From the IMG/VR virus record IMGVR_UViG_2687453454_000003, positions 1 through 64,000 of that record: a DNA stretch of 64,000 nt; one strand, given 5' to 3'. A program made the position numbers and the translations under genes. The notes below the pieces were generated by a model. The model did no database searches and was not told the DNA's origin. It saw only the letters and a list, made by a program, of their open reading frames with translations. Positions 1-22,933 of this stretch are shown one piece after another (the first letter of the stretch is position 1; each line of letters starts with the position of its first letter). Source of the stretch: a virus. Lineage: Duplodnaviria; Heunggongvirae; Uroviricota; Caudoviricetes.

Positions 1-282
1 CTACCTTTGCCTCTTGCCGCCATTTAACCGGAAGGCGTTACCGTTCGGTTGCGCTATCCCCATGCGGTGTTGCGTTTCGGTAACAGCTTTATGCAGGTCG
101 CCAAATTCCTCAACCTTCACGGGCGGGCGCTTCACGTTCTCCAGACACGTTTCACGGCGGCGCTTTATCCATTCCCGATCATCGTCCTCGGTGCATAACA
201 GCATGACTTCCATCCATCGTGCGGCAGCTCTCCGGTATAGCCCTTTTGACTCCAGCTCTTCAGCTTTCCTGTCCCTTATCAT
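1..282 (-). CDS. small phage regulatory-type protein, C-terminal end cut by window edge
   Basis: ORF track; motif EELESKGLYRRAA.W near its N-terminus is almost identical to a motif in ORF 56321..56815; adjacent to iteron cluster and AlpA gene. Confidence 0.35.
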   Translation of the reverse strand: MIRDRKAEELESKGLYRRAAARWMEVMLLCTEDDDREWIKRRRETCLENVKRPPVKVEEFGDLHKAVTETQHRMGIAQPNGNAFRLNGGKRQR

Positions 283-317
283 TTCTGCCTCTCAGATTAT
301 ATAGATAAGCAAAAAGG

Positions 318-440
318 TGTTGGTTCAGTTGGTTCAGTTGGTTCAATTTGTAAAGAGTATTGTTTTTAAAAGAATTATTCGCAAAAAGTGAACCAACTCA
401 CCCCATTTTTGAACCAACAAAAAGAGGCCGTGAACCAACA
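318..440. repeat. iteron cluster A: 3 tandem TTGGTTCAG (320-346) plus 3 spaced GAACCAAC (about 389-439)
   Basis: Direct reading of sequence; inverted copy of cluster at 7826..7942. Confidence 0.6.
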
Positions 441-513
441 CGCCGTTTAAAAACCGCTAATTATGAGGGACATCCACCAGCACAGGGCTTGTCTAGTGCT
501 GGTTAGGTGCTGC

Positions 514-732
514 TCACCGCGCACGGAGCGGCGCTGGTTTGCTCCAGCGATATGCGGGGCTGGTCATCATTTCGCGGTACCGCCTGGCTATTACAGGGCC
601 CTCTGCCAGCTGGCGCCTTAATTCCCGCAGTTCTGCCGGGCTGAGCTGGTGGCCGCCATGCTCCAGCTTGGCAATGGTCAGCAGCTCGATTTCTCGTGGT
701 GTCATGGATTCCCCTCTGATGGTGATCGGCAT
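514..732 (-). CDS. hypothetical protein (72 aa)
   Basis: ORF track only; no recognisable motif. Confidence 0.3.
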   Translation of the reverse strand: MPITIRGESMTPREIELLTIAKLEHGGHQLSPAELRELRRQLAEGPVIARRYREMMTSPAYRWSKPAPLRAR

Positions 733-956
733 TATATTGCTAGCCAGGGTGATTCTTCACTGGCCAGAGCCGTTGTGCGTGAAGTCTATGCGTGAACTCC
801 ATATGCTATGTGTTAAGTTACAGCTCAAAATGTCCTGTTCCGGTGGTAACTTTTTGGTAAACAGCGTTTTGGTGGATACCAACATGGATACCTCGCTTTT
901 GGATACCACCCAAAGCCAGATTGTCACTATGCTTAATCTAAAGCAGAGGAGCCTCT

Positions 957-1142
957 ATGCGCCTTATCAAATTAAGCGAAGTCATGCTCAGAACGGGCTT
1001 CAAGAAAACGGCAATCTACTCATGGGTTAAGACGGGCACGTTTCCACAGCCAGTTAAAATTGGTAGATCAGCTAGATGGTCGCTTGAGGAGGTTGAAGCT
1101 TGGATCCAGAACAAACTTGATTCGCGGGCTGGCAACCAATGA
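957..1142 (+). CDS. alpA: AlpA-family phage transcriptional regulator / excisionase-like DNA-binding protein
   Basis: 61 aa; LSEV..RTG.....Y..V..G.FP.PVKIG.R...W...EV..WI pattern typical of AlpA/Vis HTH proteins; paralog of 15197..15394. Confidence 0.7.
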   Translation: MRLIKLSEVMLRTGFKKTAIYSWVKTGTFPQPVKIGRSARWSLEEVEAWIQNKLDSRAGNQ

Positions 1143-1775
1143 TTAGCTTTAATATCGAGTGGTGGATAGTCCATGGACAAGCTGATGGGCGCACTCGACG
1201 AAAACGATGCGCCAGGCGGACTGTGTCGCTCATAAACCGGGAGTTGGCCAGAGGACTTAGTTGTCCTTTGCAATTCTGCAGGTTCGCACGTGAAAGTAGC
1301 CAAAACCCTGCGAACCTGAGTGCAAACCTGCAACTGCGAACCACTGAGGTGGCCTCTCATAGCTGGTGGTCATACTGGATATTAATCAGGCCTGCCACAA
1401 CCATAACAATCCATAACAGACGCATCGCACCAACAATTACTAATAGGTCCGCTCGCAACACTAATTTTGACTAAGCCTGAACGCAATGCTCAGAAAGAAC
1501 GAAGAATGGAATGAATCGTACCATCATGTTGCTCCATGATTTTTACGTTCAAGACAGTTGCTTAATCTCGCCTCGCAATTCAGCCCCCTTGCCGTTATCG
1601 AGAAGTCTTTCTCCTTACGGTTAATGCTATCGGTCTTCATATTACCAGCAGCATACGCCATCCGATTATTTCGATGCTACGCGCGCGTACTTGTCGCAAA
1701 ATACCAGGCAAAGGCCAGATTCAGAACGTCGTGATAACCACCAGTACAACATGAGAGGTCATGTAACGCGATTTA

Positions 1776-2156
1776 TCACACCAGATACATGTGATTGGTG
1801 TACCCGCATAAAACATCGTCATAGCGCGTCCTGTGCGCATATACGCCGATAATCAACACATCACCACCACTCTGTCTCATGTAGAGAACAGTTTTATGGT
1901 ATCCCCCCGCCATCGTGTGCATACTGGTCGGACGTAGTTGCAAAATTTTTTGCAACTGATACCCCTCGCGCGCGTACTTGTCTCGAAATTGGTGTTTTGC
2001 TGTGGCAGTGATATCAGAAAAATCTTCCTGTTTCACATAAAGCGGATATGCGCGTACTGTAACGGCCCCATCAACGGGGATCGGATTTGAAATCCCGACC
2101 CAAGCTATGTACCAAATGCCATGTCTTGGATATATGATGATTGCCATTCTAAACAA
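1776..2156 (-). CDS. hypothetical protein
   Basis: ORF track only; overlaps the start of the opposing membrane-protein ORF. Confidence 0.25.
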   Translation of the reverse strand: MFRMAIIIYPRHGIWYIAWVGISNPIPVDGAVTVRAYPLYVKQEDFSDITATAKHQFRDKYAREGYQLQKILQLRPTSMHTMAGGYHKTVLYMRQSGGDVLIIGVYAHRTRYDDVLCGYTNHMYLV

Positions 2157-2175
2157 AGCTAAAGGGAGGGTTGGT

Positions 2176-2526
2176 GTGAATGCTCAGGCTGTCATCATGG
2201 TTTTCCTTGGTCTGATTGTCGCAAAACTATATCCAGACTGGTGGAAAGGGGCATTAGCAACTGTCGCCATCTATTTGCTTTTATCCGTCGTTAAGCGATC
2301 GTTCGTTAAGACCGTAAATCAAGCAAAACGTTTCTCATTTAAGAATTTAATAAACTATATTACTGGGCTTATTTTTTGCCTTTCAATTTTGATCGCCTCA
2401 GCTTTTTTGCCCGTATCAATAGCTAATTTTTTTGGCGCACCATATGAGGTAGGTTATCTATTCTCTGTTTTTTGTCTTGTTCTTTCCCTTCTTTACCTAT
2501 GGATGAGAGCAAAGAACAAAAATTAG
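2176..2526 (+). CDS. small multi-pass membrane protein
   Basis: GTG start at 2176 preceded by AAGGGAGGG Shine-Dalgarno; hydrophobic stretches consistent with 3-4 TM helices; lies directly after the gp16-like gene. Confidence 0.4.
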   Translation: MNAQAVIMVFLGLIVAKLYPDWWKGALATVAIYLLLSVVKRSFVKTVNQAKRFSFKNLINYITGLIFCLSILIASAFLPVSIANFFGAPYEVGYLFSVFCLVLSLLYLWMRAKNKN

Positions 2527-2544
2527 CCATCCATGGCTAACCAG

Positions 2545-4649
2545 TTATTGAGCTTCTTTTTGTGATGCCTGTGCGACTCTGGTGAGCGATTGTGTGACCG
2601 TACTGATCGCTCTGTCATATGCTGTGCTACCTTTTGGCGTATTTGCCAGACGTAACAAGGCATTTCGTATAACAGGGCTTTCGTATGCCTTCGCTGCTCC
2701 GCCTACGGCACCAGCAGCAGGAACAACAAACGCAGCCGTTTTTAGCATCCCCGCTAATACTGCTGCGTTTATGATGCCACCACCAACTAACAATCCATAA
2801 AGCTGCTGACCATTTAAGTTTTGAACGTTCGCTTTTGCCGCGTGTCTTGTATCGTTGAGGTATTTAATAACGCCGTCCAGTTCCTTTCCATGTACGCCTT
2901 TAAAGAAAGTTGCTGATTGCTTCCTGTTCCGGTGTAACGCATTAATAAACTTCTCAACACTGATATTTCCAGACGGATCAGTCGCCTTATCTACAGCATT
3001 CTGAACTATGGCTGCTCGTGCGTTTTGCCTACCATTGTCATCCAGAAGCCTGTAAAGCTGAGAACGTTCTGATGGGCTTTGGCTAAAAACGAGTTTTGTT
3101 ACATCCTCAGGCGTGGCCTTGCCGCTGGCTATTGCCTTTTGAACGCGCGTTCTTCCCATCATGTCATTGAATTTAGACCATGAGCGATCAACCCTTGCCA
3201 TATTAATGGCTTCGTCTGCTCCAAGATTTTTGGCTACGGCTTTTTTCATATCCGCCGTATATGCCTTGTAGATAATATCGCTGGCTTTCTGGAGCGTATC
3301 TTTATCAACAGTGTCAGATGACGCCATAAATCGCTTTCGAAGATCGGTTCTGTTTTCCCTCGCCAGACGCAGGTCATTTGGTCCGCTGGTGATATCGTCT
3401 TTAAATTGCTGCAAGACTTTTACCGCGGCTCTATCCTGAGATTTGCCCGGGCGGCTTAACACGGCAATCTGATTGTCGATAGCTTTTACCGTGTTTGAGA
3501 GATCGACAGGGGTATCCCCCATAGCGTCAATTATGCGGTTATATCGCTTTCCTGCTGCCTCAATGAATTTTTGTTGCCCTTTAGTCGCAGATTCATAAAG
3601 CTGTTTATCAGAAATGCCACCCAGACCATCGCTAAATGTTCTGACTAAATTTTCTCGTGCTTGTTGTTGATTCAGCCGATTCTTACCGGTTCCAAAAAAA
3701 GAACTCTTTCGCCTAATGTCTGAGCCTGACTCTGCATAAAGGTTTTATCTTTCAGCATGTCACTGGTCATTAACGGCAGATTTCTTTCCGATGCAAAGTC
3801 GACAGCAGCCTTTGCTTCAGGCGACATATCACCACGAACAGCCCTCGAAACCGCACTCGCTGTATTTTCCAGCCCCTTACCAATACCACCAATGCCAGCA
3901 GAAATTACCGTTTGTAACGGATCAATATCTTCTCCACCAGCAAGGCTGGTGGCTCCCTGTAGTGCTAAATCTGTAGCTGCTGATTTTCCTATGGCACCAA
4001 GCACCGTTCCAGCCCTGCCCACTGGTGTAAACGCCAACGCATTAGCAAGAAACGAAGTCAGGTCTTGCGGTGATAAACCCGGCTTGTTCAGGGCATAATC
4101 ACCTGATGGCAGAGAAACGATAGTATTCCCCTTCTCATCCTGCCTTAATGTCGCCCCCATTCCCTGAAGAATCTTTTCCTGAGACGCGTCAGAGCCGAAA
4201 AGTTGAGACCATCCAGCCTTTAGGGCATCCATGCTTAGTGAGTTCAATTCTGGGGCAGAGGTGACATTTTGCAGTCTCTCCATCTCTGGAGTCATTCGGC
4301 TTTCGCCTGTTATAGCATCGCGCATCGCAGCCCCAAGACTGGCTCCCTGTTCTGCTGAACGCTCAAGCCCCTCTCTTTGCTGAGTAGCTAACTTTGCATA
4401 CCCTGACGCAAGAGAATTATCAGATGATGTATGTTGAATATTTTGAGTTGCTGATTGGGATCGGTCTATTTCATTCGTTGATGGTAGTGGATAGGCAGCA
4501 TAAAAAGCCTGCTTAGCCTGCTCTACACTTTCTCCGGCTTGCGGGGCAACGACTTCATTGAAGTATTGCTCCTGAGCCTGCGCTTTTTGTTCTGGTGCTA
4601 ACGCCTGATACTGTGGAGAGGCGATAACATCTTTCCATGCTTTAGCCAT
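2545..4649 (-). pseudogene. P22 gp16-like ejection protein, reading frame broken at an A7/T7 run (3694-3700)
   Basis: Two 325-aa ORFs (2545..3522, 3672..4649); the downstream frame stays open and protein-like upstream through the run (..RRKSSFFGTGKNRLNQQQ..), so one indel joins them into about 700 aa. Confidence 0.5.
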
Positions 4650-6070
4650 TAATCACCCCATAGTGAAGAAAAGTTACTGCTGGCTGCTGGCTGTGATACC
4701 TGCTCAGATTGCGGCAATGTCTGCGACGAAGAAGAAGTTCCTCTGTCAACTGCTGAAATAACCCGCAAAGCATCATAAGCTCGACCAGAAGCAGCTTTCA
4801 GCGAATTGAACTGGTTTTCCATCTTCCGGCGCTTGGTATCAATGGTTTTTGTGGAGTCGCCAGGCTGAGGGAAATACATTTGATAATATTTTGACATTTC
4901 AGCAGGTGCGATAGCTGCCCCTGTTTCCTGACGGAGTATTGCCATTATTGCGTCATTAGCATTAACAACGTATTGCTGCTCTGTTGGGCTGAGCGTTAAG
5001 TTAGCCAGCGTCCCATTACCCAAAGCATTATTAATGATCGCCACTCGCTGTGGGCTAAGCTGGTCTTTCAGTGTATCTATTGAATCAAGAGCATCCCTAA
5101 CCCTGTATGCAAATCCAGCAGCTTTTTTAGCCCCTTCTGGCGACTTTTCCATGATCTTTTGGGCTGTTGGCAAAGCTATTGGACGAAACCCATCTCCAGA
5201 TATTGGCTGGTTTAGTTTTCCCTGCTCTTCACTTCCGTCTGTGTAGTATTTTGTGACAGTGCCATCATCGTTTTCTCTAACACTCATTAATTTTTTGGCG
5301 TTTGTATTAATTCCAGCCGCTGCCGCAAATGCCGCCGCCCCCTCTGGATCCGCCTTTAACATTTGAGCGTACTGATTGTAATTCTGCATTGCTGCTGTTG
5401 GTGCATATGCTGACGTTAACGCATTTGCTCGGCTAATATCCTGCCCTCTCGCCTGAAGTGCTTCGCCAGCCTGATTGCTGCGGATTGTCTCTGCCAACTT
5501 GCCACGCTCAATATCCCGACCTTCCATTTGATCTTTGATATCGAAATACTTCTCATGACCGAGAGAAAACAGTGCCATACTACCAGCAAGCCGCTGGAAT
5601 CCCTGTGGATCATTAACATGCATTTCGGCAACAGACTCAGGAGAAATTCCCAAGCGACGCATTTCATCTTCGTTATCTGCTATGAATTTTCCAAATGCCC
5701 CAGTTCCGAGCGAAGATGCGATTTGAGCACTAGTCGCAAGATGACCAATAGAATTTCTCTGGTCGTCATCAATAAAGCCCATCCCTTTCTGAACGCTTTC
5801 AAATTCTTCTGGATACTCAGAAATAAGACTGCGCATTTTGTTTCTGTCTCCAGACTCAAAAGCCCCGGCATATGCTTTCTGAAACTCTGCTTTACGCTGT
5901 TGTTGACGTGCCTGCTGATTAATCTCAGCAACGCCTCTTAGCCCCTGTAGCGCCATTAAACCTACGTTTGGGTGCTGCTGATACTGCACAGGCTGAGGAA
6001 CGGAAGAACGAGGAGCATTATCATTTTGCGGTGCCATGCTAGGCAGCCCGCCAAGTTGCCATGTCGCCAT
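4649..6070 (-). CDS. P22 gp20-like ejection protein
   Basis: 473 aa (P22 gp20 is about 471 aa) and position between gp7-like and gp16-like genes; assignment from recollection. Confidence 0.5.
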   Translation of the reverse strand: MATWQLGGLPSMAPQNDNAPRSSVPQPVQYQQHPNVGLMALQGLRGVAEINQQARQQQRKAEFQKAYAGAFESGDRNKMRSLISEYPEEFESVQKGMGFIDDDQRNSIGHLATSAQIASSLGTGAFGKFIADNEDEMRRLGISPESVAEMHVNDPQGFQRLAGSMALFSLGHEKYFDIKDQMEGRDIERGKLAETIRSNQAGEALQARGQDISRANALTSAYAPTAAMQNYNQYAQMLKADPEGAAAFAAAAGINTNAKKLMSVRENDDGTVTKYYTDGSEEQGKLNQPISGDGFRPIALPTAQKIMEKSPEGAKKAAGFAYRVRDALDSIDTLKDQLSPQRVAIINNALGNGTLANLTLSPTEQQYVVNANDAIMAILRQETGAAIAPAEMSKYYQMYFPQPGDSTKTIDTKRRKMENQFNSLKAASGRAYDALRVISAVDRGTSSSSQTLPQSEQVSQPAASSNFSSLWGD

Positions 6071-6747
6071 TAGAATCCAAGCCCCCCAACAAGACCAATA
6101 AGCCCACCACCAATAGCCCCGGCGACATTACCTATACCCGGAACAACGGAACCAAGTTGCGCACCCGCTAAAGCGCCTGATGCCGCCCCACCAATACCAC
6201 GCGCAAGACTGGATGGCTGCTGCGCCTGACCTGCACGAATAGCGCCAAGCCCCTGCAAGAGTTGCCCGGTATTATTGGCGTAGTTTTGCCCTGCTGTTGC
6301 CTGCCCTGATGCCGCATTCATCCCGACATTTAGCAGGTTTCCATAATTTTGCATTTGCCCACTGAGCCAATTGTTATAAAGCATGGGCGCAATGGAAGAT
6401 AACTGGTTACTGGTAGCTGTTGAGCCAAGCCCCCCGGTAGCTTCTGCTGAGACAAGGTTCTGATAACGGGCCTGATCTGCCTGTGTTTTATATAAACCAG
6501 AACCAAAGAAATCATTCGCGGCTTTATTCTGCCCTTCCAGAGTCATCAGTCCTTGCAGTTGTTGTAAAGCAGGCAATCCGACTTCTGCATACGGCTTGAG
6601 ATTATTCATCACCGTATTCCACTGCTCGCGCTGCAAATCAATTGCCTGCTGCTGGGCCTTCGCCTGAGCTTTAGAGGCACCACCATCACCGCCTTTTTCG
6701 TATACGGCACGATTGAGATGTTTATGAGCTATATGGGTAATTAACAT
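6070..6747 (-). CDS. P22 gp7-like ejection protein
   Basis: 225 aa (P22 gp7 is about 229 aa); Gln/Ala/Gly-rich with glycine-rich hydrophobic C-terminus; gene order 14-7-20-16 as in P22. Confidence 0.5.
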   Translation of the reverse strand: MLITHIAHKHLNRAVYEKGGDGGASKAQAKAQQQAIDLQREQWNTVMNNLKPYAEVGLPALQQLQGLMTLEGQNKAANDFFGSGLYKTQADQARYQNLVSAEATGGLGSTATSNQLSSIAPMLYNNWLSGQMQNYGNLLNVGMNAASGQATAGQNYANNTGQLLQGLGAIRAGQAQQPSSLARGIGGAASGALAGAQLGSVVPGIGNVAGAIGGGLIGLVGGLGF

Positions 6748-7202
6748 TCGCTGAATTCCTTATATTGTTGCCGAGTTAACTGATAAAGCGTTACGCCGAC
6801 GGGTTTACCACATCTGATATAAGCATCATCAAGGTGACCAACACGGGTAGCGCCAAGCAAACGGATAATTGCCCGTCCATATTTCGTGGTGTCAGGAACC
6901 ATAGTGATGCTGTTAAGGAATGGTGAGTTTTCGAGAAGCCATTTGCAGAATAATCGATGCCCTTGCAGTGCATATTCACCACGGAATCCGGGGTCGTACA
7001 CCGCATGGCATTCAACAACGCTATGCCAGAAGTTACGCACTTCATGAACGCCAGCCAGCACTAATCCTTCGTAGATGCCGAGATATACCGCATCAGGCTT
7101 GATGTAGTACGTGTGCCCCGGCTCAACAATATTTTCGGTATTGCCTGGCTCGTTAAGAAAGGCCTGTAATCGCACAGGGTTATCAATAAATTTTAGTTCC
7201 AT
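6741..7202 (-). CDS. P22 gp14-like protein
   Basis: 153 aa ORF heading the ejection cassette; assignment by position. Confidence 0.4.
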   Translation of the reverse strand: MELKFIDNPVRLQAFLNEPGNTENIVEPGHTYYIKPDAVYLGIYEGLVLAGVHEVRNFWHSVVECHAVYDPGFRGEYALQGHRLFCKWLLENSPFLNSITMVPDTTKYGRAIIRLLGATRVGHLDDAYIRCGKPVGVTLYQLTRQQYKEFSEC

Positions 7203-7218
7203 GCGATGCCATCCATTT

Positions 7219-7380
7219 TCACATACAGCCTGCCAGCGCCTTATCTATTAACCCTCGTGCAATTTCATGCAGAGTTGGCGCTACTCCAATTCCTGATTTT
7301 TTACGCTGCTCTTCCTGAATTTTCTTTATCGCTTCCATTTGCTTCTCACTTATCAATACTGGCTTTACTGAAATAGCCAT
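7219..7380 (-). CDS. small protein (53 aa), possible small regulator
   Basis: Translates to MAISVKPVLISEKQMEAIKKIQEEQRKKSGIGVAPTLHEIARGLIDKALAGCM; AAGGGGG Shine-Dalgarno; LexA-box-like site just upstream; below the 60-aa track cutoff. Confidence 0.35.
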   Translation of the reverse strand: MAISVKPVLISEKQMEAIKKIQEEQRKKSGIGVAPTLHEIARGLIDKALAGCM

Positions 7381-7964: not shown

Positions 7965-10724
7965 TCATTCTTCAGATGAGTTATAATCTCCTGGCTGGTA
8001 ATTGAGTACATAAACGTTTATTTGTCGTCCCTGAATACGTGGTGATTTTCTTTGGTATCCACGACCGCTGTTTGGTGGGGTTAGCATCCCGGCTTTTTTC
8101 AACACTTCAGCAAACTGTTTTGCGTTGAAACCACATGCGATCTCCTTTTCAAATGTGGCCGGGAATGTGTAGAAAATCATTGGGCTTTCGTCATGTTCTC
8201 CACGCTGACGGTATCCGGCTAAATCTTTGATGGGCAAATCTGCCGGGCTGTATGGAAATGGTGCAAAACGGCTAAGCCCATAGGCATTAAGAAATGCCTC
8301 CGTTTGTTCAATAATCTGCTGATGTTCTTTGTTACCTGTGCCGAACTCGCGCAACCATGCGTTATAGCTGTGCTGTATCGCATCACGGCATGTCTGAGCA
8401 TCCCAGCCTGTTACAACCTCGCCTAACAGCAATGCGGCCTCCAGAATGGCAAATCGCGCGGCTACACGGTGAACCTGCTCACCATAATCGGATGGGATCA
8501 GGTTTCTCCATCTGCTTTCGCAATCACGAACGGTTTTAATAGCCTGTTGCTGGTGGTCTGCCAGCCATTTAATCCACTCACGCCCGGCTGCGCCGTGGTG
8601 ATGCTGGTAAGCGTCTTTCAGTGCGTCTGCGTGCTGTTTTCCGTTCTGGTAATCGTGAAAGCGTACTGCTTTACTCAACGGAATATTCAGCAGTCGCACC
8701 AGTTGCCCGGCTTTGGTTTTTCGCCCGGAAGTAGCGATAAATGTTTCTAAATCCATTTCTCCGGTGCTGATTGCCACTGTACGCCAGCGTTTTAGATCCC
8801 GGTTTCCACCATCTTTAGCGCCTTGCAGTTTCCCTACACCGTTAAATAACGCATAGGCAGACTGTGAAACGCTGACAGGATCAGCGCCCTGACCAACTTC
8901 ATCAAGCGGCATTAGTCCGTCATTGTGGGCGGCGGCCTCATTTGCCAGCCCCAGCGCGGTTCCGTACCACGTCAGCCGCAGTAAATCAGGGTTGCCGTAT
9001 AAGCTGCTCGCCACGTTTGCCGTGGTGGTCTTACCTGCGCTCGACTGCTCATAGAAATGAATGCCGAACCCGTCAGCGCCCACCAGCCCAATCAATGGCG
9101 CTGCCAGTGCTGCGCCGATCCCGGTCATCATTGAATAGTTACCAAAGGCCAGACGCGCCACGTTATCACGCCAGCTTTTCGCGCTCCCTGAGACGGTATA
9201 TCCGGCTGCGGCTGAGCTTCTCCCGCTGAACAGCACAGGATTTTCAGGTGTTCCGATGATTTCCCCATCAGGCATGATGTACGCTCCGCATTGCCATCCA
9301 GTGGCATGAGCAACACGCCACAATTCACGAGAGCCACTGCGTTGTAGCCAGTCTGCCAGTATTGCTCTGAGGCTGCTTTTGGTCGTGACATTTACCCCAC
9401 CAGCTTTAAGTGTGCGCCATCCTTCACGTTCACCAATATCAGCCAGTGGAATGGCAGCGGTTGTCGGCGTTTCAGAACCAAACGACAGCCAGCGAAGAAT
9501 GAGATACTGGTCTTTATCGTCTCTGCCAGTACCGATAACGCTTAACGGAGAACATAACCAGCTTTCGTTATTGATGATTTCTCCACTCTGGCTGTCAGCT
9601 CTCGGAGATACCCAATAAATACCATCCTCGCGGCTTTCTATTCTTGGTTTCAGTGGGTCGGTATCCATAACCTTAAAATCGCTTCCCTCAATGGTCTGTG
9701 GCTCCTGTTTCACGCCATTACCCTGTGGTTGGTACATTGACTTATTGAACGCTTCTGTGGCGCATTTAATGCCGTGTTTTTGGTGGTAATCATTCCAGTC
9801 TGCTTTGTGATCTGTCGGGGGTAATGCCACCCATCCAGAAACAGATAAAGCTGCTTTTTCTGCTGCTATTCTCCCCGTGTTTTGTCTTCCTTCGCTGTGG
9901 TCGTTATCCGCAGCAATGATGATTTGTGCTGAAGGAAATTTATCCCGCAGTACCTGGGCGACATATAACAGGTTCCCGGCATCAATCGCCGCCACTGTCA
10001 GCGCCTCTGGACGAATTAAATGGGCAGATAATGCCGTTGCCAGCCCTTCTGCGATTAAGATGCTCTGTGTTGTTTCTGGCGCGTTTATGGCGTGATATGC
10101 CCCCCGCTTTGCTGAACCTGTCAGGAGTCTTTTTTCACCATGTGATGTAATAGTCTGTGCTGCTGTGACTGCGCCGGATTTATCCACCAGCGCCAGCAAC
10201 AGAGATCCATCGGGCAACACGGGGAATGTAAAATCACCTACCCCTTTCGCAACCAGATAATCAGATTTGCCGTTTACAGCCTTTCTGCGCATGTCATCAA
10301 ACTGACGGGAAAACGTATCCCGTCTTTGTTGTTCGTCCTTCTCTGCCCTTTTCAGGCGCTCCTGTTCGCGTCGCTGGCGCTCGGTTTCCAGTTGTTCCCG
10401 TTTCTGGCTGGTGGCTTCTGGTGTTTCCGTTGTCCGGTAATCAATACCCAGAACATCAGCGGCAAGAAGCGCCGCCTCTGTTGTGTCGCAGTTATTTACG
10501 CGTTTAATTAAATCCAGCCCATCACCAGCGCCGCACTGATTACAGATGAAGCTACCGCGCCCGTTGTCATCGAACCGGAATCGATCTTTGCCCCCACATG
10601 CAGGGCAGGGAGCATGACGGCGCGGAGAGTCAGGGACATTTATGTTCAGGCAGCCCAGCACATGAGGCCAGTTGTTTTCAGACGCACTGATAACCTGACG
10701 GATAAGATCAATGTTTCGCATCAC
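7965..10724 (-). CDS. P4 alpha-like primase-helicase
   Basis: 919 aa; N-terminal zinc-binding CPACGG..FRFDD...FICNQCG; Walker A-like SSAGKTT and Walker B-like LMPLDEVGQ. Confidence 0.85.
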   Translation of the reverse strand: MMRNIDLIRQVISASENNWPHVLGCLNINVPDSPRRHAPCPACGGKDRFRFDDNGRGSFICNQCGAGDGLDLIKRVNNCDTTEAALLAADVLGIDYRTTETPEATSQKREQLETERQRREQERLKRAEKDEQQRRDTFSRQFDDMRRKAVNGKSDYLVAKGVGDFTFPVLPDGSLLLALVDKSGAVTAAQTITSHGEKRLLTGSAKRGAYHAINAPETTQSILIAEGLATALSAHLIRPEALTVAAIDAGNLLYVAQVLRDKFPSAQIIIAADNDHSEGRQNTGRIAAEKAALSVSGWVALPPTDHKADWNDYHQKHGIKCATEAFNKSMYQPQGNGVKQEPQTIEGSDFKVMDTDPLKPRIESREDGIYWVSPRADSQSGEIINNESWLCSPLSVIGTGRDDKDQYLILRWLSFGSETPTTAAIPLADIGEREGWRTLKAGGVNVTTKSSLRAILADWLQRSGSRELWRVAHATGWQCGAYIMPDGEIIGTPENPVLFSGRSSAAAGYTVSGSAKSWRDNVARLAFGNYSMMTGIGAALAAPLIGLVGADGFGIHFYEQSSAGKTTTANVASSLYGNPDLLRLTWYGTALGLANEAAAHNDGLMPLDEVGQGADPVSVSQSAYALFNGVGKLQGAKDGGNRDLKRWRTVAISTGEMDLETFIATSGRKTKAGQLVRLLNIPLSKAVRFHDYQNGKQHADALKDAYQHHHGAAGREWIKWLADHQQQAIKTVRDCESRWRNLIPSDYGEQVHRVAARFAILEAALLLGEVVTGWDAQTCRDAIQHSYNAWLREFGTGNKEHQQIIEQTEAFLNAYGLSRFAPFPYSPADLPIKDLAGYRQRGEHDESPMIFYTFPATFEKEIACGFNAKQFAEVLKKAGMLTPPNSGRGYQRKSPRIQGRQINVYVLNYQPGDYNSSEE

Positions 10725-11079
10725 CGTACCCCATGTGGTCTATAGCGTTTGCGATATGGCTAACCAGCATCTGCCACTTGGTTATTCCGTAATCAGTCAG
10801 CATGCCATCATTGTTTAGCCACATATCAAATTCAGCGGTTGTCGCAAGTTTCCACTTATCGCCGTGGACAGTCCTCATTGCTGGGTACATGAATGCGCAA
10901 ATCAGATCACAAACATCTGACGGCTTCAGAGATGTAGTAATGGTGCGTCCCTCTGGCGTCTGAATTGCCATTTTCTCTTCACCAGTAGAATGAAGGTTAT
11001 GAATCCACACAGCACCAGCAATCTTTGCCACCTGCTCTCCGATTGCGGAGCTAAGCGCCATTTCTGCATTTTCACGCAT
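10708..11079 (-). CDS. hypothetical protein
   Basis: ORF track; part of a tightly packed minus-strand operon upstream of the primase. Confidence 0.4.
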   Translation of the reverse strand: MRENAEMALSSAIGEQVAKIAGAVWIHNLHSTGEEKMAIQTPEGRTITTSLKPSDVCDLICAFMYPAMRTVHGDKWKLATTAEFDMWLNNDGMLTDYGITKWQMLVSHIANAIDHMGYGDAKH

Positions 11080-11413
11080 GAGAACCTCCCGCTACAGTTG
11101 CGCCCATGTCATTAACCATGCTTTGCCATATCTCACGCCCGACGTCAGTCAATCCGTCCTTAGTGACGCAACGCTCAAGAAGCTCGATCCCCACGGTTTC
11201 CCACTGCGGGTAGAACACTTTCATGGCTGCCAGTGTGTAGCTATCGATCAGGCTGCGAACGCCTTTTACTCCATTAACGATTTCCACACGTACGGCCTCG
11301 CCGTCCGCATCAACCATGAAATAGTCCCCGCCGCTGGTGGAGGTAATGTGGTTATACAGTGCCGACGCATACTTATTTGCCAGCGCATTCAGTCGGAAAT
11401 TTTTAGTAATCAT
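11072..11413 (-). CDS. hypothetical protein
   Basis: ORF track; operon context. Confidence 0.4.
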   Translation of the reverse strand: MITKNFRLNALANKYASALYNHITSTSGGDYFMVDADGEAVRVEIVNGVKGVRSLIDSYTLAAMKVFYPQWETVGIELLERCVTKDGLTDVGREIWQSMVNDMGATVAGGSHA

Positions 11414-11423
11414 GGCTCCATCC

Positions 11424-12026
11424 TCAGTGCGTCACTGGTTCCGCTGGCATGCCGTTTTCATTCAGTTCAGCTATAAAGCTGTTGTGAAGTTCAGCAAGCG
11501 TTTCACGACCAAATGGAGTCAGTGCTCCTTGTTCCACATCCATCATGGCTCTGTAGAAAATGATGGCGCGTTCTGTGCCAGACTCGATGCCAAAACGTTC
11601 TATCATCGCTCCCTCAATGTTGTTTGCCATAGCGAGGCGCTCTGCTACTGGATACAGCGGCATGGCGACGATGCCGTTGGAATAAACAGCCACTTCGGAA
11701 GGATTGCCAGTATCATCAATGATGCTGACAGTGCCGTTTTCCTCTCTCATTTCCAGCATGAATACTGTTGCGATCAGCCATCTCCACATAATGACGTTAT
11801 GCTGTGATGTGTAATCGAAATATCCCTGGTTGCCGCCATCGGCAATAGCGAGATGTATTGACATACCTTCATCTGGTTTATCGTCATAATCCCCGGCATC
11901 CAGACGATTTACGGCATCAATATATGAGACGGCCTCAACGCGTTCTGTCATGCCATCGTTGCTGCGGTACATGATGTTTACGCCGTCAGGCGTTGCTTCT
12001 GTATGGAAAGTTAAGAAATTATTCAT
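11424..12026 (-). CDS. hypothetical protein (start trimmed to internal Met)
   Basis: ORF 11424..12131; internal start MNNFLTFHTE avoids overlap with the upstream gene. Confidence 0.35.
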   Translation of the reverse strand: MNNFLTFHTEATPDGVNIMYRSNDGMTERVEAVSYIDAVNRLDAGDYDDKPDEGMSIHLAIADGGNQGYFDYTSQHNVIMWRWLIATVFMLEMREENGTVSIIDDTGNPSEVAVYSNGIVAMPLYPVAERLAMANNIEGAMIERFGIESGTERAIIFYRAMMDVEQGALTPFGRETLAELHNSFIAELNENGMPAEPVTH

Positions 12027-12240
12027 GTTTCGCCTCGCCTGAATGATTCTGTAACTCATATTTGCCCAACAATTCGTCCGCTTCCTGAATAGCTTCTGGT
12101 ACGCCATTGAGCAGTGACATAACCGCGCCAATCATTAACTTGTCTCTGTTGCTGGGGCTGGCCCCTTCAAGCCAGAACCCTAAAACAGTCTGAACCTGTT
12201 CGATGCGACATTGCGCTTCAATGAGCTGGATGTTGGTCAT
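12019..12240 (-). CDS. hypothetical small protein
   Basis: ORF track. Confidence 0.35.
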   Translation of the reverse strand: MTNIQLIEAQCRIEQVQTVLGFWLEGASPSNRDKLMIGAVMSLLNGVPEAIQEADELLGKYELQNHSGEAKHE

Positions 12241-12500
12241 TTCGCACTCTCCACATCGATTAAACCGATATCTATCAGGGAGGTAACTTTTTGTAGCCAG
12301 CTATTGATTACTGTCGCCTGTTCCCCGCCCACCGAGGGAACAATCTCATTCATCACATGAACCAGACCTGTGCGCGCTCTGGTAAGCCGTTCAGTCGCGC
12401 AATCTGCGGGAGTGAATGTGTCTGGATATGGCTCTTCACGCCCCAGCAATGATTCAATTTCCAGCTCACACGGATGACGATAAATTAAGTTGATATTCAT
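12237..12500 (-). CDS. hypothetical small protein
   Basis: ORF track; start/stop overlaps with neighbours. Confidence 0.4.
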   Translation of the reverse strand: MNINLIYRHPCELEIESLLGREEPYPDTFTPADCATERLTRARTGLVHVMNEIVPSVGGEQATVINSWLQKVTSLIDIGLIDVESAK

Positions 12501-12691
12501 TTTTCACCCCCAAGAATTACCAGCTCGGCACGGGCATCGTTAACCAAAGATGAGCACGCTTTAATCGCATCCACGACATCAGTAGCGTCCATTTCTTCAG
12601 CCGAAAGACTGACAGCAACCAGGACAGCCGCTGCTTGCTCGATTAATTGAAGTGCGGACGTAAGGCGAGGGGTATTAATTGAGTTATTCAT
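12497..12691 (-). CDS. hypothetical small protein
   Basis: ORF 12497..12748 trimmed to internal Met. Confidence 0.35.
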   Translation of the reverse strand: MNNSINTPRLTSALQLIEQAAAVLVAVSLSAEEMDATDVVDAIKACSSLVNDARAELVILGGEK

Positions 12692-12902
12692 TGGTTGCCC
12701 CCGTTTTTCCTGGCATTTCGCCACCTTCCAGCAGGAAATGAACGTCACGAACGGCGAGATCCAATATCGCGAGTAACGCCTTCAGTCTTTCGTCTCGTGA
12801 GGGAGAGTTGCTCACCAGAATGTCGTTAATCACTTCTGTCAGTGTGATGATCTGGCTTGTGCGTTCGAGGGGATCCATATGCACATCGTAGGTTTTAATC
12901 AT
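12684..12902 (-). CDS. hypothetical small protein (72 aa)
   Basis: C-terminal part of the 355-aa six-frame ORF; ATG at 12902 overlaps the stop of the upstream 64-aa gene. Confidence 0.35.
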   Translation of the reverse strand: MIKTYDVHMDPLERTSQIITLTEVINDILVSNSPSRDERLKALLAILDLAVRDVHFLLEGGEMPGKTGATNE

Positions 12903-13089
12903 GTGCCACCTCCATGCGGATACGACCAGCAAAAAAGCAGATGTGATCGCGCACCAGAGAACGGCGAGCATCGCGTTCAGACTCGGCAGCAATATGATGA
13001 ATTTTGGCGGTAATTGTCGGGCAATCGCGGCGAACTGCGGCGATAATCCAGATAAATTGCGGTTTTTGGGTAGGGGTAGTAGCCAGCAT
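12895..13089 (-). CDS. hypothetical small protein (64 aa)
   Basis: ATG at 13089 preceded by AGGAGG (13097-13102) with 7-nt spacing. Confidence 0.4.
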   Translation of the reverse strand: MLATTPTQKPQFIWIIAAVRRDCPTITAKIHHIAAESERDARRSLVRDHICFFAGRIRMEVAHD

Positions 13090-13291
13090 GTGGCAGCCTC
13101 CTTGTACTGGGAGTTCTTCCCACCACCGGAGCTGCGAAACTCGCTGGTGGTGGACTGAACAGAGTTCGCAGTACCGGCGTACAAGGAAACCGGCCAGCCT
13201 TTCGGCTGCCCTGTCCAGCCCACCATAATTTTGCAAGCGACGCGGATTATAACCGCATCACTGAAAAAAGTGTGAGTCTGGCTAACGGCAC

Positions 13292-13313
13292 AAAAAAAGA
13301 CGCTCGGCGCGTC
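13292..13313 (-). terminator. intrinsic terminator-like hairpin GACGC-GCCGA-GCGTC followed by T7
   Basis: Minus-strand stem-loop followed by seven U; sits in the leader upstream of the small-gene operon. Confidence 0.4.
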
Positions 13314-13744
13314 ATGTGTCGCCTCGTACATTTCCGGGCTGCGAAACCCGGCACCCGTTTTATGAGGTGCCTTATAACCATAAACCGTGTTGCCGCATAA
13401 CGGCAAGCTCTTTTTTATGGACTCCGAAAACTCACTATTGGAAGCACCAGATGCACAATACATCGCGCTCATTTCGTTAACGTCGCGCGTGTGGACGAAG
13501 GTTTTTGTGGAGTCACTACGCGAGCAGAGAAAGCCATCTACGACCAGAAATTCTCTGGCGCAGCCGCCGACCTTCTCAACGCTAACACCATCGACCGTAA
13601 TTTCTGACATAGTTAAGGCATCCGCTCCCACCACCAGAAAATGATAAACTTTGCTTGTATCTGCTGTATTAATGCCAGACTTTGCTGTCATATTGCTGGA
13701 TTTTGGCGACATACCAGCCAGTGAAAATATCTTCTTCTGGACGG

Positions 13745-13927
13745 TTAGCATTTGTTAACCTCCGCGAACTCCTTCATGAAGCGCGCCAGCGGTTGTACGC
13801 ATGGCGATTGATACCCGTCGCGATAAAACGTCACTCGGTTGTGAGACACGCTTTCGACAGTAACGAGTGCTCCGTGGGCATCCTTGTAGCGTTTTTGAGG
13901 TTGTGGTGTTCCTGTCGGCTTAAACAT
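13745..13927 (-). CDS. hypothetical small protein
   Basis: ORF 13745..14014 trimmed to Met at 13927, which overlaps the stop of the antirepressor gene. Confidence 0.3.
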   Translation of the reverse strand: MFKPTGTPQPQKRYKDAHGALVTVESVSHNRVTFYRDGYQSPCVQPLARFMKEFAEVNKC

Positions 13928-16473: not shown

Positions 16474-16615
16474 ACGCCACCCCGCGCCCCTAATTCTGAC
16501 GGCTATGCCAGCCCGTAGGGGTGTACGGGTTTTCGGGGATCAGCCTAGACATAGCCTATTCTTTGTTCGTCTACATAAGTCTACTACCATTGCTTAACAC
16601 GGTCTATTCATACAG

Positions 16616-22348: not shown

Positions 22349-22933
22349 TTACTCCATTACAGGGACAGCAGGCCACTCAATATCCGGTGCTACTGATGTA
22401 TCAACACGGTTCAGCAATACCCGATACTTTTTCCAGGCTGCCAGCAACGAGATTTCTTCCTCCGTTGCGATTTCCAGATCTACAGCATCCTGAAGTGGCG
22501 CAATATGCTCACTGGCTACCTGCATCAGGCTGTTTTTTGTTTCTTCCGCCTCCCGGATCCGGAACAGTTTTTCTGCTTCTGCATCTTTCACCCAGGCTGT
22601 GCCGTTCCACTTCTGAAACTCCCCTTCCGGCGATAACCAGGTAACATTTTCCGGTAACGGACCGAGTTCAGAAATAAATAACTCGTCTCCTGACGCTACG
22701 TCATAAACCGTTTTACCCCGATGGTCTTCAACGAGATGCCACGATGCCTCATCACTGTTGAAAACAGCCACAAAGCCAGCAGGAATATCTGGTGGTGCAA
22801 TATCGGTACTGTTTGCTGGCAGACCTGTATGAGGCGGAATATATGCATCACCTTCACCAATAAATTCATTAGTTCCGGCCAGCAGATTATAAATTGTTAT
22901 GGTCCGTGGTTGTTCACTCATTCTGAATGCCAT
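22349..22933 (-). CDS. tfa: tail fiber assembly protein
   Basis: 194 aa (lambda Tfa is 194 aa); directly downstream of the side tail fiber gene. Confidence 0.85.

Follow-up and report, generated by a model that had tools for sequence, protein, structure and literature searches.

The immunity factor of the satellite P4 is an RNA, acting by a mechanism that PMC10111431 summarises from Sabbattini 1995 and Forti 1999. The P4 immunity region comprises the promoter PLE, the seqA leader with its terminator t1, the CI RNA, seqC, the kil gene nested in eta, the Rho-dependent timm, and the genes from epsilon to the alpha primase. According to the same account, which cites Forti 1999, eta starts upstream of PLE, contains CI and ends as kil, and its translation from the late promoter prevents termination, overriding the RNA switch (PMC10111431). 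In phages P1 and P7, the immI region carries a c4 antisense RNA with the targets a1/b1 and a2/b2, followed by icd and ant. In the Salmonella prophage Gifsy-1, the isrK-orf45(STnc1160)-anrP locus consists of an isrK-family leader with its own terminator, a complementary region giving a processed RNA of about 80 nucleotides (nt), and a translationally controlled gene. In the literature, isrK and seqA are already treated as equivalent, as are C4 and the CI RNA (PMC3632133, PMC4825925, PMC10111431). Here we set beside these systems a region of a stretch of viral DNA of 64,000 nt (Caudoviricetes; positions 1 to 64,000 of the IMG/VR record IMGVR_UViG_2687453454_000003; the whole stretch is called the window hereafter). 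The region, which lies on the minus strand upstream of a gene for a protein of 64 amino acids (aa), is very probably an RNA immunity cassette, belonging to a P4-like integrative island that occupies the E. coli thrW tRNA-Thr site. The system is thus already known, and what the window holds is an uncharacterised variant of it, with its own immunity specificity and carried by many E. coli.

This assignment is built on homology to P4 and to the C4 and isrK families, on RNA structures, on complementarity and on the co-variation of the regulator with its targets, all of which we observed here. A scan of the whole window against Rfam at gathering thresholds gave four matches, two of which cover the cassette. 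The isrK family (RF01394) matches 13370-13293 with 69.0 bits (gathering score 50) over model positions 1-77 of 77, and the C4 family (RF01695) matches 13230-13143 on the minus strand with 81.1 bits (gathering score 45) over model positions 1-87 of 87. The same pair is found in the P4 genome, with isrK at 8692-8615 (the seqA leader with t1) and C4 at 8507-8420 (the CI RNA), and P4 and the window can be aligned over the PLE promoter, both leader hairpins, t1, the CI/C4 scaffold, the Shine-Dalgarno sequence (GGAGGCUGCC) and the start of the Icd/Kil-like gene. An earlier note on this DNA, made without database searches, had likened the region to the P4 arrangement, in which a small RNA acts on repeated targets ahead of the primase operon; the shared Rfam hits and the alignment bear out this likeness, and they argue that the relation to the P4 immunity region is one of homology, beyond mere resemblance. 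We inspected the minus-strand sequence of 12600-13900 and located the motifs by script. The features, all of them on the minus strand (-), including the neighbouring open reading frames (ORFs), are as follows.

13377..13406 (-): PLE-like promoter by homology to P4, with -35 TTGCCG at 13406-13401, an 18-nt spacer and -10 TATGGT at 13382-13377
13406-13390 (-): inverted repeat TTGCCG/CGGCAA, overlapping the -35 hexamer
13293..13370 (-): IsrK-like leader RNA, equivalent to the P4 seqA leader, with hairpin 1, hairpin 2 and the terminator; Rfam isrK
13371-13350 (-): leader hairpin 1, GGCACC/GGTGCC (in RNA, GGCACC/GGUGCC), from the motif search
13351-13334 (-): leader hairpin 2, CCGGG-UUUCGCAG-CCCGG, with core helix CGGG/CCCG, from the motif search
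13339..13345 (-): upstream target b1, UUCGCAG, in the loop of leader hairpin 2, inside the first GUUUCGCAGC copy
13322..13329 (-): upstream target a1, GUACGAGG, forming 8 base pairs with C4 loop a', one of them G-U
13292..13313 (-): Rho-independent terminator, equivalent to t1 of P4, with stem GACGC-GCCGA-GCGTC at 13313-13299 and U7 at 13298-13292
13143..13230 (-): C4/CI antisense RNA gene, a terminal stem of 17 base pairs around two hairpins; Rfam C4
13208-13195 (-): C4 hairpin 1, CAGCC-GAAA-GGCTG (in RNA, CAGCC-GAAA-GGCUG), from the motif search
within 13143..13230 (-): C4 hairpin 2, GCCGG-12 nt-CCGGU
13179..13187 (-): a', UCCUUGUAC, in the 12-nt loop of C4 hairpin 2; anti-Shine-Dalgarno and complement of a2
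13165..13171 (-): b', CUGCGAA, single-stranded, 3' of C4 hairpin 2; complement of both UUCGCAG copies
13120..13153 (-): b2-presenting hairpin, with outer stem CCACCACC/GGUGGUGG, inner stem GAG/CUC and 8-nt loop UUUCGCAG
13138-13132 (-): target b2, in the loop of the b2-presenting hairpin
13153-13146 and 13127-13120 (-): stem arms CCACCACC and GGTGGTGG, from the motif search
13347-13338 and 13140-13131 (-): the two copies of the 10-mer GTTTCGCAGC, 207 nt apart, each in an 8-nt hairpin loop
13107-13099, site 13097..13107 (-): target a2, GUACAAGGA, overlapping the Shine-Dalgarno AAGGAGG (13103-13097) of the first gene
12895..13089 (-): 64-aa Icd/Kil-like gene, the first regulated gene; NCBIfam phage_ICD_like
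12684..13751 (-): 355-aa ORF, counterpart of P4 eta, spanning the cassette; Pfam Phage_ASH
7965..12898 (-): downstream operon, small ORFs joined start to stop and ending in the primase-helicase (10724-7965)

Every hairpin listed in the earlier note was located at or near where it had been placed, as was its terminator, which a terminator scan detects independently. The TTGCCG/CGGCAA hairpin, counted there as part of the leader, in fact lies in promoter DNA over the -35 hexamer, outside the leader RNA, and the two copies of the 10-nt motif, which do sit in hairpin loops, are farther apart than the roughly 180 nt that had been given. What had been missed is the regulator itself, C4, between the two repeats, together with the second target pair, a1/a2, of which a2 lies on the Shine-Dalgarno sequence.

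Besides the Rfam scan, the earlier note had proposed folding of the minus strand and had named covariation as a point on which its reading would depend, and both also favour it. Taken alone, the C4 RNA has a minimum free energy (MFE) of -45.8 kcal/mol (z = -4.9 versus shuffles), in a fold that is the Rfam model structure, and the b2-presenting hairpin has an MFE of -20.5 kcal/mol (z = -3.9); the z-score of the leader alone is only -1.8. Covariation was measured on alignments of 52-58 related cassettes, with slid controls that were 31-54% paired overall. The C4 fold is 97.2% paired in 58 distinct cassettes, with 217 double-change cells and 16 pairs showing double changes (slid controls, 33-49%), and pairing stands at 94.9% for the leader helices with the terminator (52 sequences, 134 double-change cells; slid controls, 34-50%). 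The b2 hairpin is 91% paired, with 86 double-change cells and a compensatory change in 9 of its 11 pairs (slid controls, 31-54%). The terminator is kept in the related leaders, again with compensatory changes.

The 3' strand of the C4 terminal stem is at the same time the 5' strand of the b2 hairpin (six bases, in shared alignment columns 91-96). Only one of the two helices can thus form at a time, and yet each of them shows compensatory changes across some 58 cassettes, which suggests a conserved alternative fold in the unprocessed transcript. RNAs of the C4 family are cut out of a longer transcript by RNase P and trimmed at the 3' end, to give a stable RNA of about 70-80 nt; in the window, the 3' strand of the C4 terminal stem is followed by ACCA (13149-13146), which would be compatible with an RNase P substrate.

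The two parts of C4 that are left free for pairing match targets on both of its sides. The segment b' (CUGCGAA) is exactly complementary to b1 and to b2, over 7 of 7 nt in each case, and the loop a' is complementary to a2, over the Shine-Dalgarno sequence, at 9 of 9 nt; the repeated GUUUCGCAGC is the paired target that is called seqA/seqC in P4 and b1/b2 in P1. In the window, the composite pattern TTCGCAG-N(4-30)-GTACRAGG is found three times, and in 100 shuffles never. Two of the occurrences are the target sites and the third, on the opposite strand, is the complement of C4; this search found no further C4 targets elsewhere in the 64 kb. Duplexes of C4 with the leader and with the downstream region were also computed with RNAduplex and set aside, as they were unrealistically long and ignored intramolecular structure, and exact complementarity and cross-locus statistics were used in their place.

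For the latter, IMG/VR was scanned with a pattern that fixes the conserved hairpin 2 and leaves its loop free (GCCGGTNTCCTN6CCGGT), which gave 120 loci with 71 distinct loop/tail combinations; the statistics refer to 69 distinct a'/b' combinations with full flanks, from viral contigs. In 67% of them the cognate b' 7-mer has its reverse complement on the upstream side, and in 67% on the downstream side, versus 5% and 3% for non-cognate b'. A complement of at least 7 nt to the cognate a' is found upstream in 46% and downstream in 59%, versus 5% and 8% for non-cognate a'. As the denominator includes chance matches to the pattern that are not C4 genes, the true cognate rates are higher. The geometry is also kept: in related cassettes b2 is fixed at about 34 nt after hairpin 2, a2 stands in most of them at about 65 nt after it and always takes in the AGGA of the Shine-Dalgarno sequence, and a1 follows b1 by about 16 nt. 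The C4 loops and both targets thus change together across about 60 related cassettes.

In the light of these data it is scarcely credible that an ordinary 5' untranslated region should have come by these hairpins and this repeat through chance. A 10-nt repeat within some 300 nt would by itself be only mildly unlikely, and the folding score of the leader is unremarkable, but chance does not account for two curated Rfam families above their gathering scores, for a composite target pattern absent from the shuffles, for the strong covariation of leader, C4 and b2 hairpin, or for complementarity that is specific to cognate pairs across loci.

The same loci show that the two determinants reassort independently. 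Among the IMG/VR loci L003-L122, the a' loop UUGAAGG is paired with three different b', and the b' AUUCCUA with at least five different a' loops. In the contig L009 (7120-7429), compared with 13090-13382 of the window, the flanks are 96-99% identical and the cassette only 69%; its a' is UCCUUCAGA and its b' ACGCCAA, and the matching targets also differ from those of the window. The confinement of this drop in identity to the cassette implies that the immunity module was exchanged as a unit.

Between the window and P4, t1 and its flanks differ at only two loop bases (GA in the window, AC in P4), whereas the specificity sites are all different. Both b1 and b2 read UUCGCAG in the window and GUGAGAA in P4; b', in the same alignment columns, reads CUGCGAA in the window and UUCUCAC in P4, each matching its own targets. 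With shared flanking bases omitted and marked by dots, a1 is GUACGAGG in the window and UUCACAGG in P4, a2 is GUACAAGG… and UUCACAGG…, and a' is …CCUUGUAC and …CCUGUGAA, respectively. All six specificity sites thus differ between P4 and the window, the changes compensate one another, and the immunity specificity differs from that of P4. This is reportedly not without precedent: Sabbattini and co-workers are said to have described, in Virology in 1996, the retronphage phiR73 and other heteroimmune P4-like elements in which co-varying changes of seqA, CI and seqC on the same scaffold define different immunity.

The likeness to P4 extends to the order of the parts, the Icd/Kil-like first gene, the cassette-spanning ORF that matches Phage_ASH, the primase operon downstream, and the integrase and alpA upstream. 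The putative promoter of the window, TTGCCG-18-TATGGT, is aligned with TTGCCT-18-TATAGT at the same position in P4, and a TATnnT box stands at the equivalent place in 52 aligned leaders; by analogy with PLE, we infer a constitutive promoter function for 13377..13406. Where the window has the TTGCCG/CGGCAA repeat, P4 has a weaker one, TGCC/GGCA. Read on the plus strand (13390-13416), the repeat of the window followed by GCTCTTTTTT scores as an intrinsic terminator overlapping the -35 hexamer, and this element may act as an operator or stop antisense transcription. The window departs from P4 in having a shorter spacer between t1 and C4 and in the way its eta-like frame begins, with 123 codons ahead of the cassette and coupling to the DUF4222 gene in place of alpA.

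The genes under control follow directly. The 64-aa gene matches the NCBIfam model phage_ICD_like (E = 1e-19), which P4 kil also matches, and it is annotated as Icd-like in strain UTME-6 by the Prokaryotic Genome Annotation Pipeline (PGAP). Its first 150 nt or so are C-rich and G-poor (C/G ratio, 1.8-1.9), like a Rho utilisation site, and they are equivalent to the segment of P4 that holds timm (X51522, 8365-8209; PMC3177188). From 13089 onwards the minus-strand ORFs are contiguous up to the 919-aa primase-helicase (10724-7965), whose Pfam domains (Zn_Ribbon_Prim, Toprim_3 and DUF927) make it one of the Toprim/DUF927 type.

The likeliest mechanism is, by analogy, the one established for P4, including a translational block of the P1 type. 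A transcript would start at the constitutive promoter (13406-13377), and its leader (13370-13293) would show b1 in a hairpin loop, then a1, then the intrinsic terminator, at which most leader transcripts would end. Those that read through would carry the C4/CI RNA (13230-13143), to be excised as a stable small RNA. Its segments b' and a' would pair with b1/a1 of nascent leaders and, as in P4, strengthen termination at t1, so that C4/CI is autoregulated. The same segments would also pair with b2/a2 just downstream, covering the Shine-Dalgarno sequence of the Icd/Kil-like gene and leaving it untranslated. Rho would then terminate transcription in the untranslated C-rich start of icd, and with the small genes and the primase-helicase off, the island would be quiescent. 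Transcripts from the upstream alpA/antA/DUF4222 operon, translated through the cassette in the eta-like frame, would override the switch. It is from P4, P1 and Gifsy-1 that we infer the RNA processing, the termination at t1 and by Rho, the translational block and the eta override; the conserved t1 and the C-rich start of icd are suggestive of t1- and Rho-dependent termination.

The closeness to P1 and P7 raises the question of how much of this is needed. As in immI, the RNA belongs to the Rfam C4 family (named after P1/P7 c4), two-part targets lie on either side of the RNA gene, and the one downstream takes in the ribosome-binding site of an Icd-like gene; the P1-like phages RCS47, D6 and JL22 share DNA that is 68-70% identical over most of the cassette. 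Unlike in P1/P7, the cargo is a replication operon and not an antirepressor, it is carried by an integrated P4-like island and not by a plasmid prophage, and roles for Rho polarity and t1 at the window locus are predictions. One might thus suppose that C4 does no more than block the icd ribosome-binding site, with Rho polarity downstream, and that the leader terminator and b1/a1 are dispensable or at most a buffer for C4. The overlap of a2 with the Shine-Dalgarno sequence, the Icd-like nature of the first gene, its C-rich, G-poor start and the DNA shared with the P1-like phages would all fit. This pure P1/P7-type control is nevertheless improbable in our view: t1, nearly the same as in P4, is kept with compensatory changes in nearly all related leaders, which argues for t1 function, and b1 is as well conserved as b2 (67% each).

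A different view is suggested by Gifsy-1, where the order of the parts is the same as in the window and where the short leader RNA has been shown to activate translation of an antirepressor. In trans, IsrK raised translation of the downstream gene about 140-fold, and the processed STnc1160 RNA (about 80 nt) overlaps 'orf45' (PMC4825925). By the same token, the terminated leader RNA of the window (13370-13292) might be the main regulator, acting in trans, its b1/a1 pairing with C4, either free or still part of a full-length transcript, so that the Shine-Dalgarno sequence is freed and the operon is turned on. The leader is indeed a full-length isrK match ending in an intrinsic terminator, and in the MFE fold of the whole 291-nt transcript the leader b1/a1 is paired in cis with C4 a'/b', which matches 'structure A' of the Gifsy-1 isrK locus. 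Against this stands the fact that the same parts repress in P4, to which the window is closer in its gene order (integrase, alpA, primase operon, kil). Gifsy-1 is a lambdoid prophage, while the window element is P4-like, with icd-like and replication genes. The Gifsy-1 authors themselves note the parallel with P4 and leave the role of STnc1160 open. Activation and repression are not distinguishable from sequence, and the two may coexist. We regard activation of the IsrK type as unlikely to be the main control, if less so than pure P1/P7-type control, and as better viewed as an added layer than as an exclusive alternative.

Several observations weigh against repression of the P4 type as set out above. 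The pairing of a' with a1 is imperfect (8 base pairs, including one G-U). At the leader, the Rfam family c4-a1b1 (RF03163) stays below its gathering score, with 22.5 bits versus 46.7; the bases concerned are already covered in the window by the overlapping isrK model, and P4 itself reaches only 44.1 bits. A simple consensus promoter scan did not call the PLE-like promoter, and promoter activity, C4 processing and termination at this island are predictions. The hairpin that follows C4 (seqC/b2) has, unlike that of P4, no U-rich tract after it, so that a terminator of the P4 t4 type may be missing. Lastly, the eta-like frame of the window differs from the icd frame, unlike in P4, and close relatives end the eta-like ORF variously, at 155, 167 or 210-216 aa; the override by eta-like translation may for these reasons differ from that of P4, or be absent in some variants.

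The eta-like frame deserves attention of its own. The ATG of the 355-aa ORF (13751-12684) overlaps the stop of the upstream DUF4222 gene, and its residues 124-232 (13382-13056) match Pfam PF10554, Phage_ASH, with 99.2 bits (cut-off 26; E = 2e-28). The Phage_ASH match begins a little ahead of the isrK match and extends 33 nt into icd, thereby taking in the whole RNA cassette. P4 presents the same picture, as its eta, a 199-aa ORF (8767-8168) open on the P4 sequence, matches the full Phage_ASH profile with residues 22-146. A homologue search with the 123 aa that precede the match in the window found only close enterobacterial relatives, and thus no evidence of an independent protein family, while the last 71 codons (12898-12684) are a separate gene that is in frame by chance. 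At both ends this ORF of 71 codons (minus strand) is joined to its neighbours: it begins with an ATGA shared with the stop of icd, and it finishes with a stop that lies over the start of the gene that follows. Probably a real small gene, it has no annotation in UTME-6, and in strain EC26 it is merged into the 355-aa ORF.

The earlier note had dismissed the 355-aa ORF, but the frame is usually kept open and has a counterpart in P4 eta. From -160 to +130 it is open in 75% of 67 distinct cassettes, as against 6% and 3% for the other two frames, and on this ground we rejected the notion of a spurious ORF open by chance. The gene that comes first after the Shine-Dalgarno sequence lies within the eta-like frame in 40 of 64 cassettes, as it does in P4. 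A conserved Ash protein was rejected in turn, for codon periodicity is absent within the cassette: there, substitutions are flat over the codon positions (35/27/29, 9/12/11 and 37/32/30), and where the ORF overlaps icd, it is the third positions of icd codons that take the changes (for example, 5/22/8). Our reading is that it matters that the eta-like frame is translated, and that the amino-acid sequence it gives inside the cassette does not.

The view that the region chiefly encodes a genuine Ash family protein, with incidental RNA structures, could appeal to the strength of the Phage_ASH match, to the ash family protein that PGAP calls in EC26 and to the open frame in three quarters of the cassettes. 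It is very improbable all the same, as the Pfam match encloses the whole RNA cassette, the substitutions show the pattern just given, the ends of the ORF differ among relatives, and translation through an intrinsic terminator would be required. Moreover, the variable sites co-vary with distant complementary sites, which protein coding leaves unexplained, and the immunity factor of P4 is, as noted in PMC10111431, an RNA. Translation of a long protein across the region, which the earlier note had named as a refutation of its own reading, does not discriminate, to judge by P4, because P4 has both eta translation and an RNA switch.

One might speculate further, in two parts, that the Ash "domain" is the conceptual translation of the isrK-C4 cassette and that the competition between the b2 hairpin and the C4 stem is a conserved conformational switch. 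The Ash frame would then be kept open only for ribosomes from the upstream operon to run over the RNA switch and disable it, and the conformational switch would tie both the folding and the processing of C4 to whether its own downstream target is exposed. Neither part is stated in this form in the literature that we retrieved, and we offer the two together tentatively, as a possibility somewhat short of an even chance.

The island that carries the cassette adjoins proA and the thrW tRNA-Thr gene. Along the minus strand it presents the integrase gene, a DUF6387 gene, alpA, a hypothetical gene, an AntA/AntB antirepressor gene and the DUF4222 gene, then the cassette, the 64-aa Icd-like gene, six or seven small ORFs and the 919-aa Toprim/DUF927 primase-helicase. 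Several complete E. coli genomes contain the identical DNA, and 1121 of 5426 genomes have DNA related to it. Unlike in P4, the primase is of the DUF927 type and psu, sid, delta and epsilon are not in the annotated island: none of the four is annotated in the identical EC26 locus or found among the Pfam matches of ten island ORFs, with no dedicated profile search for sid. From the P4 set, int, alpA, a primase and the 'Ash' match alone are present. As psu, sid, delta and epsilon are not annotated, the island is not a complete P4-type satellite. Downstream of the primase (minus strand, about 81-7380), the EC26 annotation gives DUF2824 and P22-like DNA ejection/injection protein genes and an IS66-family element, a cargo unusual for a P4-like island. 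The other two Rfam matches above the gathering score are an int-alpA RNA (46.7 bits; 16488-16555, minus strand), just downstream of the integrase gene, and IS009 (222 bits; 22392-22590, minus strand), near the tail-fibre genes of a neighbouring lambdoid prophage.

The biology of such cassettes is textbook matter for P4, P1 and Gifsy-1, and the value of the present findings is practical. For annotation, PGAP places a 355-aa "ash family protein" over two small-RNA genes and an intrinsic terminator, and in EC26 the real Icd-like gene is lost, no icd gene being annotated there; the identical DNA of UTME-6 is given an ash pseudogene and an Icd-like gene. For the detection of satellites, a census of P4-like satellites uses PF10554 as the epsilon profile, or 'Ash' marker (PMC8628076). 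We found that P4 epsilon matches PF25738 and that PF10554 maps instead to the eta/CI segment of P4 (8330-8704). Because PF10554 maps to the eta/CI cassette in P4, hits to it report the RNA immunity module, and not the helper derepressor epsilon. For the typing of immunity, a' and b' can be read from the DNA and give an immunity type, and near-identical islands carry swapped cassettes. Typing by a'/b' could thus predict cross-immunity among the islands and prophages that bear this module.

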